Source: Eledone cirrhosa (Eukaryota). Taken from it: a stretch of DNA of 64,000 nucleotides. Position numbers and translations under genes: made by a program. The notes under the pieces are model-generated. The model had not been told where the DNA came from. It saw nothing but the letters and a program-made list of their open reading frames with translations, and ran no database searches. Shown here one piece after another: positions 28,201 to 34,200 of this stretch (position 1 is its first letter; each line of letters starts with the position of its first letter). Location: NCBI GenBank assembly GCA_964016885.1, contig OZ024763.1, positions 8,680,001 through 8,744,000 of the forward strand. Direction: 5' to 3'.

Positions 28201-31200
28201 CATAGGCGCACTAGGTTCTATCTCAAGGAGTTTCCAAGGATGGTTAAAGAAGATTAGTCCAGCCCCGCTTTTTGGAACACTACAAAAGGCATGCTTGCTG
28301 GGAACAGCAAGAACCCTCCGATACGTCCTGAATGTCTGAGGCTGCAGGTAGCGGCTTGATATTAATTTCAACAAACTTTCCAGTTAAATAACATCAATGA
28401 CTGAGACTCAAAGAACATTAATAATAATAATGATTTCATTTATTGGCCACAAGGCCCGACATGTAGAGGACAATACAAAAGACAGGGACAGTGGAGGTTT
28501 ACATATACAACGTGTAAACAATATAAATAAGAATAACAAGAAAAACAAGTTGCTACTACTGCTACTACTACTGCTACTGTTACTACTACTTCTACCACCA
28601 CCACCATCACCACTACTAATACTACTACTACTAACATTCTGTTCTTATTTTGACTCATTATTCCAGACAACAGACTATATTACATCCAGAGATGGTTTCT
28701 CAATTTTCTAAATTTTTTGTCCATTTTGTTCATATCATGGCTATCATAATATTTCGGAGCATACATATAAGTATCTTACCTAGACCAGGTAGTTTCCGTA
28801 CTTGGCCGATCAGACTAAGATGGTCTCCATGCCTCGTTGGAAGACCAAATCCGGAAATCAAATTCTGCAGCTGTGGAACTGTATAAGCATTTGCAGACAT
28901 AAGTGGTATATTTTTTTTAGCTTTGTTGAAATCTGCTACAATTCCAAGCAATATGTCAGATTTTGTGCTGTTTGAATTGCCTTGAAGTATGGACAAGATC
29001 TCTCCAATTGTATGGTGAGGTTTCATGTTCTCTCCACTCGGTTTGAAGAAATTACTGAAAGAAAATATATAAATGATAAGTTAACCCTTTAGCATTTAAA
29101 CCAGCCATATCTGGCTAGAATTCTCTCACTCCTTTCTGTTCAAACTGGCTGAAACCAGCCACTCATACTTATATTAAGGTATTGTTCTCAAAATAAATAA
29201 CATCATCAAAATCTCATGGATTTGATATTATGTGAGATAAAGTGTTTACCGTGAAAATACAATAGTATATATAGAGTAATGTAAATGTTATGTGAGATAT
29301 TATGTGAGGTAAAGCCTTTACTGTGAAAATATAATAGTATATATAGAGTAATGTAAATGCTAAAGGGTTAAACTCTTCATTGACAATATATTTCAATGTT
29401 GTTGTTGTTCGTTTGTAGAATGCTCAGCCACTTACATATTAATACAAGATATACTGTACTTGTAATTCTAAAGGGCCAGTCTTGTCATACACTATGTCAT
29501 GCTGAATCTTCCTGAGAATTACATCAAGGGTTCACATGTTTGTGGCTGGAATCAAGTTGTGTGTGTGTGTGACAGTTCACACCTATGTGTGTGTGTGTGT
29601 GTGTGACAGCTCACACCTATGCAGGTTTAGCTGGTCTCCTCCAAGGTGTATCTCATTGGAGGTGTCTTGGGTAATTTAATGATAGGGATTCCAGTCCTAT
29701 CATCTCATTTCTACAGCTGAGTAAACTGGAGCAATGTGAAATAAAGTGTCTTGCTCAAGGAAACAACACATCACCCGGTCTGAGAATTGAAGTCACAACC
29801 TTTCGATTGCAAGCCCAATGCTCTAACCACTAAGCCATGTGCCTTTACTTGATCAAGTTGAGCTAAAATGAATCAAAACCTGACAGACAGAAAATATATC
29901 AAAGTTGGGGAACTCACGTAAATATGGTTTTCGTAGCTAACATGGTTCTTCTAAAATCTTCAGTGAAAGTTTTGGCTTCTTCTCTGTCGAAACCATGAGG
30001 TCTAAATGGGGGCTCGGGGTCAGGTTTCTGCTTTTTGAAATCATTCATACGTTTTAACATTCCTCGTTGGTAAGCTTTAGAAAACTTTTTTGCTTTTTCT
30101 GCAGCGGAATGGGTGTCAAAGACCTGTAAATGCGAAACGGGGTTTATATATATATATATATATCATCATCATCACCGTTTTACATCAATTCTTCCACACT
30201 AGCATGGGTTAGACGGGTTGTCCTGTTGTGGGCAGTGCCTGGTCGGGTGACCTTGTCTTGCTCATATGGGAACTGATTTTGGCTTGGTTTCTACAGTTAG
30301 GATGCCCTTCCTAACACCATATATATATATATATATATATATAGAAGGATCTGGCCAGCATGGTATAGCAGGTCACATTGGCCACTGGAATAGTTCCTTT
30401 ATTTTCCTCGGAAGAAGAGATATCAATCTCGAAATATCAGGTCATATGAATAAATTAAGGTAAAAAAGCACCCCTTGTTTCTTACGACTTATTTTCCGTC
30501 CAATGTACATTGTTTTGGAGGAGGCCAGCTAAACCTGCATAGGTGTGAGCTGTCACACACACACACACACACACACACACACACATAGGTGTGAGCTGTC
30601 ACACACACACACACACACTCCATTTTACCTGTCCAATGTGGGTAAACTTGTAGTCATTACATTCCTGGACCCAGTGAGGGATCGGCAACTGTCGATCCAG
30701 GTAGACGCTTGGGTCGACATAGGTATATGCTTCATCCTTGTCAGTTTCATCCATTTGGGATTTCCGTACAGCCACATGGATAGAGTTGGGTGAGCACTTG
30801 GATCGTATAGCGTGGCCCAAGGTTTCACCAGATTTCATGAAGATTCTCCCTTTTTCCTCAATTTTTTTTATGATCTCCTTAGTTGGTTCCACGTTGGCAA
30901 CTATGATCTCGTAGCCAGAGAAACCATTCACTGACGGCTCTATGAGAATCTCATTGTTTCGTCCCCGTCGCACAGACACTAACCCTGTCATTGGGTTCAC
31001 CACCTGCAGGAGATTGAAAGAAGATAATTAGAGACATGATTACAGGTGAGGTGAGATGAGGGCATACAATATAGTATTTAACAGGTACTTTATTTTATTA
31101 ACCTCGAAAGGATTAAAAGCAAAAATTGACCTCGGTGGGATTTGAACTCAGAACATAAAGAGGTCGGAACAAAAACCACAAGGCATTTCTTGTGAATCCC

Positions 31201-34200
31201 TAACAACTCTGGCTATCCCCACCACTAACAACAACAACAACAACAACAGCTATAGCAACAATACATATTGTATTTTTTGATAGTATGAACTGTCTAAAAA
31301 GGGTTCTCAAAGTTTTGGGGCTACTGCCCCACGGCTATTTATGACCCTCAGCACACCCGAAACCCTATCTCCAGAGGGACCTGCCTACATGCAAATTGTA
31401 AATAATATATAAAAATAAAATTCTTAATTGATATATAATAAATAATATATACTATGTATAAATAAATAAATATATATTTTACTATATATAATAAATAATA
31501 TAATTGTTTCTATTTTTCGGCACAAGGCCAGCAATTACCCAGTGCATTAGTGGTACTTTATTTTATCGACCCCGTAAGGATGAAAGGCAAAGTTAACCTC
31601 GGTGGGATTTGAACTCAGACCGTGGAGGACCGTAACTCTATGCTGCAGAGCATGGCGTCCGACCCTCTACCGATACTGCCAATCCACTGCCCTTATATAA
31701 CAAATAATATAATATATACTATATATAAATAAATATCATATATTTTAAATTTTTCTATATTTATATATAATATGTATCGTTTGATATTTAATATACTATT
31801 ATATCATCTCTACCACCACAGTGACCCCTGGACCTTCTCAACACCCCCCAAGGGGTGGTAGTGTCCACATTAAGGACCTCTGGTCTAACTGATGCTAGTC
31901 TAACAGTTTGAGGGTCTAACTGCTTGGTGGTCTAATACATTGTTTGGCATGGTTTCCACAGCTAGATACCCTTCTCAGTGTCAACCACTTTGATAACCTC
32001 TGGTCTGAAAAAAAAAGAGGGTGGTCACCTTTGAACCCTTTTGTAATAGAAGATCCAAGCCTTGTGTCTTGAATTGACCACTGGAGTTAGCAGGAAAGAC
32101 ACCTGGACCACACTTAGGTGTCTCTGGACGTCTGTCTGTTGGAAAATCTCTGTGAAATTTCTTGCCAAAAATCTTCTTTATCTGTGACATTCCAAAGTCA
32201 ACACTGTAACAAAAATTACACTGGAACAATATATATATATATATATACACACTCACACACATATATATATATATATACACACACTCACACTCACTCATAT
32301 ATATACTCACACACACACAGGCGATGCGTTATGTCCTTGGGCAAGATTCTTTATTTCATGTTGCTACTTCCACCAGGAGTTGCGACCAATAGATAGTATT
32401 AGCAATTGAAAAGACCAATGGAAACATTGTTCCCTTGGTCCAATCTGACGAAAGTCGGTCTGACTGTCGATATATATATATATTAGTGTGGCCCTTAGCA
32501 ATAGGTAATTTTCCGAAAGTTTTGCTGCCCCCCCACCCCCCACCCTCTAATCCTGTTCCAATCAACAAAACGATGGGATGTGCAAAATTTCAGCATGATG
32601 ATGATGATGGTGGTGGTGTAGGTGATGATGATGATGGTGGTTATGATGATGATTGTGATTATGATGATGGTGGTGGTGGTTGTGACGATGATGATGGTGG
32701 TGATGGCGAGGATGATGGTGATGATAATAGTGATGGTGATGATGAGGGTGATAGTGATGATGATGATGATGGTGATGGTAATGATGGTGGGGGTGATGAT
32801 GATGGTGATGGTAATGATGGTGGTGGTGGTAATGATGGTGGTGGTGATGGTGATGATGATGATGGTGATGATGATGGTGATGGTAATGATGGTGGTGGTG
32901 GTAATGATGGTGGTGGTGATGGTGATGGTGAAATACACTCACGTCTTTTTAGACATCTCATAAACTTTCTTGGTGTTCTTAATGAACTGAATGATTGCTT
33001 TAAAGGTCCTTATGAAGGGTGTAGCCACGTCTTGCAGATTGTTTAAGGGTTCTATGATGGACGACAGCTCCCCTGTTAGTTCCTTCATCAAACGCCATTC
33101 TTGTTGTCGCTGTTGACCGGAGCATGGAAAGAGACAAAGAATTATTATCATCATCATAAATATCATCATCATTATCATCATCATCATTATCATCGTCATC
33201 ATGGAACTGGGGAGCTTCAATGACACTGTGGAAATATGGAGCTAGGGTGACCCCTACCCCACCCCTATGAAAATTGGGAGATAGTGTGTGAAAATATGGC
33301 ACTTTGAAGCTAGGGTGCCACCTTATAGCACTGCAGAGCTAGTACATATATAGTTTAGAGGTTTCAATGTCAAAGTTACTGTTGGTTCGCTAAAGTGAGC
33401 CTTCAATGCAAAACTTTATTGTAAGTGATTCATATTGATACAGTAGCTGGCGAATCTATCATCATCATCATCATCATTTTACGTTCACCTTTCCCTGCTT
33501 GCAAGGTGAGATGGGTCCTATTCAGCACAGCATCTCCCCACTTGTCACGGTCCTTCGTCATCTCCTCCGTGAGTTTCAGCGATCTGAGGTCTGCTCTCAC
33601 CACCTCTGCCCATGTTTTTCCTGGTCTACCTCTCCTGTGTCTTCCTTCTATTGGGATTTCTTGGCACTTCTTTACCCAGCGGTCATCCTCCATGCACATC
33701 ACATGTCCATACCATCGCTGTTATTTTACATTAAAAAAAAACATTATATAGGACAAAAAATCGAACATTACAAGAAATTCCATATTTACAAACATACACA
33801 TCACAATTACCGATATCCCTACTGTGAAGTTAAGTAACCCCATGTCATCTGCTACCCTCCCCCACCTCTACCTCAACCAGTACTATCTTTACTGACCCCA
33901 GCCTCAGAACTGCTAGTCTAAATACAGTAGGGAAGTTACCTTTGCTTGATCTTCTGGTATAAAGAGGGCTACAGCAGTGGAGTTAGCATTCTTGAAATGA
34001 GATTTTATGGAGTTAATGATAGCTTTTGTTTCTTTAAAGATACCAAGAATATCTTTTTTCATCACCATCCAATATGGTGTTGTTCCTGGAAATACAGAAA
34101 GACAAATACAAATGTTATTATGTTGCTGCTGATGATGATGATTGTGTTGCTGTTGTTGCTGATCCCCTTCCCTTTACATAATGGACTAGCCCATCTTAAA

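Follow-up and report, generated by a model that had tools for sequence, protein, structure and literature searches.

In peptidases of the M23 family the zinc ligands are the His and the Asp of an HxxxD motif and the second His of an HxH motif, and water is activated by the first His of HxH together with an upstream His, His260 of LytM (PMC9662197). LECT2 (chondromodulin II; LECT-2 in C. elegans), treated in reviews as the sole vertebrate or mammalian protein of the M23 fold (PMC9662197, PMC10034042), is a free secreted protein of ~16 kDa whose zinc, bound by H35, D39 and H120, is described as structural (PMC8039541). It is reported to be without enzymatic activity, with an HxGxD motif that matters for function (PMC8174566), and a review describes it as being without a catalytic histidine. 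The LytM factors EnvC, NlpD and DipM have the same fold with a degenerate site and are bacterial periplasmic activators of amidases. Here we describe two exons of Eledone cirrhosa (assembly GCA_964016885.1, contig OZ024763.1, positions 8,680,001 to 8,744,000 of the forward strand; this stretch of 64,000 nt is referred to as the window), which encode a domain whose M23/LECT2 fold is read through models of its orthologues and in which three of the five active-site residues are replaced. On balance we lean towards reading this domain, by analogy with the proteins above, as a groove that docks proteins without cutting them, on the extracellular portion of a giant protein predicted to be anchored in the membrane.

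Coordinates are those of the whole window unless contig coordinates are named, and the exons of the domain lie on the minus strand, as follows.

32029..32203, minus strand: exon A, carrying the end of a helical region, loop 1, which has an invariant Cys, and what is left of the HxxxD motif
32053..32067, minus strand: TQGLD, the HxxxD equivalent, with the ligand His replaced by Thr (32067-32065) and the ligand Asp kept (32055-32053)
31004..32028, minus strand: the intron that splits the domain, phase 0, GT-AG, 1025 bp
30629..31003, minus strand: exon B, carrying the beta-sheet core, the position equivalent to His260, the degenerate HxH motif, and an invariant Y-x-D-P and Cys
30893..30895, minus strand: Asn in place of the upstream catalytic residue, LytM His260, as placed by profile alignment to 5kqb
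30776..30784, minus strand: SIH, the HxH equivalent, with the catalytic first His replaced by Ser (30784-30782) and the ligand second His kept (30778-30776)

The five active-site positions of the window domain are therefore occupied by Thr, Asp, Asn, Ser and His. In profile alignments TQGLD falls opposite HQGVD of LECT2 and HYGID of LytU, and the register of the His260-equivalent is based on sequence-profile alignment. A preliminary description of this DNA, made from the letters alone, had read TQGLD and SIH as remnants of HxxxD and HxH, and at codon level both readings hold. Its statement that the zinc ligands had been lost applies to one of three, the first His, now Thr; the Asp and the last His are kept, and the first His of HxH is catalytic rather than a ligand (PMC9662197). 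Beyond the two His changes noted there, the second catalytic His is also gone, with Asn in its place. LECT2 has Tyr at this position. At the level of residue state, the replacement of three of five residues supports the proposed pseudo-peptidase, which may bind either of the ligands offered in the same description, peptidoglycan or a protein.

Exons A and B join in frame in phase 0 with no stop. In a scripted junction search the GT-AG join used here scored best, as did the joins on either side of it. Exon A is bounded by an acceptor AG at 32205-32204 and a donor GT at 32028-32027, and matches the Ylistrum orthologue at 54% (tblastn); the acceptor of exon B is CAG at 31006-31004. Seven short database homologues start with a Gln just before the start of exon B, which we infer to be the same acceptor read through. 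Twenty-two exons of the host gene were located by homology, starting with the first exon and ending with the one that follows the domain, and 20 of their 21 junctions are GT-AG and stop-free; three of the junctions scored weakly in the scripted search. At 53739-52708 (minus strand) the phase of the donor differs from that of the acceptor and homologues are ~20 residues longer, so a small exon, not located, must exist there. The peptides quoted in the preliminary description are all present on the minus strand of the window; the numbering of their exons as 24 and 25 was not reproduced, as 19 coding exons were found upstream, making them the 20th and 21st, or the 21st and 22nd if the small unlocated exon is counted. 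Exon B has a single matching place in its own genome (3.0 Gb, 1796 contigs). Bacterial contamination is ruled out by the spliced exons within a 30.7-Mb contig.

Exon B alone matched 44 proteins at E<=0.001 among 1.84 billion, and the nearest named homologues are molluscan. Ten of these matches were examined, nine of them named mollusc proteins (Ylistrum, Haliotis, Pecten, Argopecten, Mytilus, Batillaria, Elysia); Potamilus is among a second set of ten, and two further searches added Pecten, Argopecten, Mya, Mactra, Plakobranchus and Branchiostoma belcheri, as well as a protein of 5016 residues encoded on a 15,340-base contig. The similarity of the domain is not due to chance, because besides these 44 matches the fold searches with models of two orthologues returned LECT2/M23.

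For residue counts, five of the 23 homologue rows that span both motifs were dropped (three duplicates, being isoforms or alleles, one row carrying a large insertion and one in which the first motif consists of translated intron sequence), which left 18 full-domain homologues. The HxxxD His is present in three (Thr in 12, Arg in three), the HxxxD Asp in 17, the His260-equivalent His in none (Asn in 16, Gly in two), the first HxH His, and with it both His of the motif, in five, and the last His in 17 (54 of 60 when all rows covering the position are taken, the window and duplicates included). This is the comparison of orthologues that the preliminary description had called for, and a full catalytic set occurs in 0/18. 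Fourteen positions of the domain, mostly Gly, Pro, Cys and aromatics and including three Cys, are invariant in 18/18, and the domain is therefore under constraint.

All three zinc ligands are found in 3/18, of which one is from amphioxus and two are from Batillaria; the two from Batillaria also retain HxH. To judge from the domain tree, either the ligand His was lost repeatedly or the Batillaria proteins have regained it. Such retention brings to mind a site that takes up metal conditionally, or a remnant of enzyme activity: the Asp and His would bind zinc with the missing ligand given by a partner, and paralogues with three ligands may be weak peptidases. The near-constant Asp and last His, the three-ligand proteins and the intact HxH of Batillaria would all suit such a site, yet the absence of the His260-equivalent from every homologue speaks against an enzyme, the zinc of LECT2 is described as structural despite all three ligands (PMC8039541), and DipM is inactive though its last His is kept (bioRxiv 2022.09.10.507391); we regard this explanation as very improbable. 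In the domain tree, which is unrooted and partly open, the Batillaria proteins P0025 and P0027 (P-numbers are the homologue row labels of this analysis) lie in a starred clade with two Thr-bearing rows, inside a larger, mostly Thr group.

The assignment to the M23/LECT2 fold, made in the preliminary description, is supported by profiles, by the Pfam match of the amphioxus homologue and by models of orthologues, and significant matches were obtained with Foldseek, VIA-align and profiles alike. The modelled sequences are orthologues standing in for the window domain, with an identity to it of at best 45% over 176 columns. Domain profiles gave human LECT2 as best match (E 0.002 and 0.005), with LytU at E 0.62 and 0.008, and 22 of the 30 language-model neighbours of exon B are M23 clusters. 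Taken singly, the window exons gave no match to Pfam M23 (PF01551, cut-off 28.7 bits), exon B alone had no PDB sequence match better than E 0.13, a word-index search of proteins of 208-2000 residues with exon B found nothing, and a phmmer search of the PDB with Batillaria P0027 gave no M23 match. With 48.8 bits the amphioxus homologue exceeds the cut-off for PF01551, and nine of the 38 alignment members match this Pfam entry weakly (best E 4.3e-4).

The AlphaFold2 model of the Ylistrum domain, built from a 38-row alignment, has a predicted local distance difference test score (pLDDT) of 90.9 and a predicted template modelling score (pTM) of 0.81. With Foldseek it gave 45 matches at E<=0.001, and those listed are chains of the M23/LytM family, with LECT2 at rank 45. 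With VIA-align over 48,161 chains human LECT2 (PDB 5B0H) came first (Z 13.6, root-mean-square deviation (rmsd) 2.2, 113 aligned), followed by PrgK (12.9), DipM (12.1) and EnvC (11.7-11.8), with active M23 peptidases at Z 10-11.6; ranks 1-26 are all M23/LytM-family chains or phage proteins matched over the same region, and non-M23 hybrid-motif folds begin at Z 6.7. In a 999-residue model of the Mactra orthologue (pTM 0.32; pLDDT of the domain region 66-90 per ten-residue block) LECT2 is matched at Z 13.2, rmsd 2.5, with 116 aligned.

LECT2 is thus the best match by fold and by profile, tied within Z 1 with the LytM domain of PrgK. The window family and LECT2 have in common a Cys/Gly-aromatic loop before HxxxD, clearest in Batillaria, and LECT2 resembles the window domain in being extracellular, of animal origin and non-catalytic, the first and the last being predicted properties in the window. 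In contrast, LECT2 has all three zinc ligands where the window domain has two, the window family has only three invariant Cys, and LECT2 is free whereas the window domain is embedded in a chain of ~5000 residues with a predicted anchor. The amphioxus homologue matches bacterial and phage M23 domains, with no LECT2 at E<=1. The active peptidases LytM, lysostaphin, LytU and EnpA share the fold and the landmarks G-x-D, P-x-x-G, G-x-x-L/I-G and D-P, and differ in the active-site residues replaced here. DipM, a proven case of an inactive domain used for docking, shows in alignment a pattern similar to that of the window family, the first His being missing from each motif and the last His retained. 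In EnvC the domain likewise comes after a long helical region. These factors are bacterial, whereas the window protein is animal, with no orthology seen at the level of sequence. We know of no such amidase targets in animals.

Our working hypothesis is that the domain would not hydrolyse peptides and would bind zinc weakly or not at all, because both water-activating His and one zinc ligand are gone, and that the kept Asp and His would shape the floor of a groove. This groove may hold a helix or an Fn3/Ig-type domain of a partner, which could be a different protein, a second copy of the giant protein or a region elsewhere in the same chain, by analogy with the docking of LECT2 with its receptors and of EnvC and DipM with amidases. 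A protein partner is favoured because the degenerate M23 domains characterized so far mostly bind proteins (PMC9662197), because the DipM groove is needed for function (bioRxiv 2022.09.10.507391), because LECT2 binds several receptors (PMC10034042), in the worm the FnIII domains of SAX-7 (PMC5079751), and because the domain is not conserved as cationic, its net charge ranging from -7 to +4 in the 10 of 10 sequences examined. Three points weigh against this hypothesis. The Asp and last His, each so widely kept, could mean that metal binding is retained; the 999-residue model is, at its pTM, uninformative on how the domain packs; and LECT2-b of fish reportedly binds both peptidoglycan and lipoteichoic acid (PMC10034042), so the fold can bind wall material without cutting it.

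The last point leads to another possible, though unlikely, explanation, namely that the domain is a non-catalytic microbial sensor whose groove binds stem peptides of peptidoglycan or teichoic acids, the giant protein being a pattern-recognition or scavenger receptor. Peptidoglycan is recognized by M23 enzymes (PMC9662197), it is grass carp LECT2-b for which binding of wall material was reported, and the giant protein is predicted to be extracellular. Positive charge is not conserved here, however, whereas human LECT2 has an isoelectric point of 9.4 (PMC10034042), Pfam scans of the window and homologues contain no cell-wall-binding domain, and the precedent of the characterized degenerate M23 domains is mostly one of protein binding.

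The host protein runs, in order, from a putative signal peptide through a Vitellogenin_N-like region, ~300 amphipathic helical residues, the M23-fold domain, a PAN domain, Fn3/Ig-like repeats and an EGF-like segment to a predicted membrane helix. Its further features are these.

59708..59764, minus strand: start codon and 19 signal-peptide-like residues, recognized by eye
37721..59707, minus strand: exons resembling Vitellogenin_N, of large lipid transfer (LLT) type, with two furin-like sites (E 0.0025 for one exon; Pfam matches in homologues)
32170..36536, minus strand: exons of the ~300-residue amphipathic helix, directly before the domain (hydrophobic moment z 8.9, reached by 0/200 shuffles)
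21540..21731, minus strand: PAN/apple domain, encoded by the same gene and scoring above the Pfam cut-off (PF00024, E 4.9e-6)
897..15121, minus strand: Fn3/Ig-like repeat exons, from Pfam scans and homologue alignment; the gene runs past the window edge
Contig coordinates 8671033-8670044, minus strand: Ig/cadherin-like, EGF-like and hydrophobic segments, then basic residues, 9-10 kb beyond the low end of the window

The long homologues align collinearly with the exons across the whole window, and the fusion of domains therefore belongs to one gene. Two adjacent genes are ruled out, as the orthologues are single open reading frames, among them the 5016-residue protein on its short contig. The fusion to an LLT-type N-terminus, proposed in the preliminary description, is borne out by these collinear exons and by Vitellogenin_N matches above the Pfam cut-off in five of 16 homologues scanned (P0013, P0021, P0052, P0058 and P0059); the match is below cut-off in P0004 and P0049 and absent in fragments, in P0025 and in P0048. 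The fusion, called unusual in that description, is a conserved family trait and not peculiar to this genome. A Vitellogenin_N region, a signal-like N-terminus, furin-like sites and amphipathic helices are common to the window protein and the LLT proteins (vitellogenin, apolipophorin/apoB and MTP), to which the window protein adds the predicted type I anchor and the M23, PAN, Fn3/Ig and EGF modules. We know of no LLT protein with an M23 domain, and the literature searched yielded none. The furin-like R-x-K/R-R sites, at 45064-45053 and ~37870 (minus strand), lie in the Vitellogenin_N-like region and are seen also in Haliotis and Mactra homologues; cleavage at such sites occurs in apolipophorin. 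In the Mactra model the beta-barrel of the lipid cavity is not formed and confidence in that part is low; lipovitellin (1lsh) was matched at Z 11.1, rmsd 23.5, with 260 aligned, amid generic helical matches. A search of the PDB with the full-length profile at E<=0.01 gave no LLT protein structure, nor was one among the matches listed by Foldseek for the 999-residue model, results that do not exclude an LLT fold, and Pfam scans of the window and homologues gave no match to DUF1943 or VWD.

The amphipathic character of the helical region recurs in 4/4 sequences (z 8.7-11.8, 0/200 shuffles each), and the region is helical in the Mactra model. Since this run leads straight into the domain, the latter might be a structural module only, packed on the neighbouring helical bundle with no outside ligand, as EnvC holds a restraining arm in its own groove; in EnvC the groove is filled by the adjacent helix (bioRxiv 2022.09.10.507391), and the predominance of Gly, Pro, Cys and aromatics among the invariant residues would fit as well. 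We nevertheless find this improbable, given that the polar Asp, His and Asn of the groove floor are kept in 16-17/18 and that one orthologue (P0052, from Mya) tolerates an insertion of ~60 residues in loop 3, directly before the HxH position. Under the docking hypothesis, the LLT-like and amphipathic region in front likely handles lipid, and the M23-fold domain would aim or regulate this lipid-binding head.

At the C-terminal end, the hydrophobic segment followed by basic residues is predicted to be a type I membrane anchor, and a matching segment occurs in five of seven homologues of at least 4640 residues, being absent in two Haliotis proteins. A PDZ-type C-terminus is ruled out, as what looks like a stop codon coincides in part with a GTAAGT donor and the homologue tails are longer; the cytoplasmic tail probably continues past that stop. 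P0059 (Plakobranchus) has a weak SAP-domain match after the M23 domain, and the database names 'protein jagged-2' and 'CRB-like', found among P0052, P0059 and P0040 (Elysia), were apparently transferred from EGF repeats. The introns contain one tandem-repeat family in arrays at 1306-2652, 41073-41510 and 47098-48513, with long stop-free frames that are not genes, and short frames at 33720-33433 and 23504-23205 (minus strand), presumably fragments of retroelement and Tc1/mariner type.

Searches of the genome itself with PF01551 and with an amphioxus domain stretch found nothing; the window domain was also missed, and the searches are thus uninformative on other LECT2-like genes. In full-text literature we found no description of an LLT-M23 fusion or of this family, a coverage outside which lie most subscription journals and supplementary tables, where a proteomic mention is possible. 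The degenerate LECT2/M23 domain is real and conserved, and its giant invertebrate host protein is apparently undescribed, although the use of a dead M23 domain for binding is already a known kind of thing. It is tempting to speculate, and we rate the idea as rather unlikely, that these proteins form an invertebrate receptor class in which a membrane-tethered lipid-transfer head is joined to a LECT2-like module sensing microbial wall material or a lipoprotein partner through a disarmed M23 domain, the zinc site being disabled in most molluscs and, in some paralogues of snails, either retained or regained. The family, present in molluscs and amphioxus, is a second animal home of the M23 fold. 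Its members form a natural gradation, with three zinc ligands in amphioxus and Batillaria and two in most molluscs, which offers a direct means of testing the role of zinc in LECT2-type domains and the passage from wall-cutting enzyme to signalling ligand. It further suggests that the lipid-transfer superfamily has a membrane-anchored branch, as yet unstudied.

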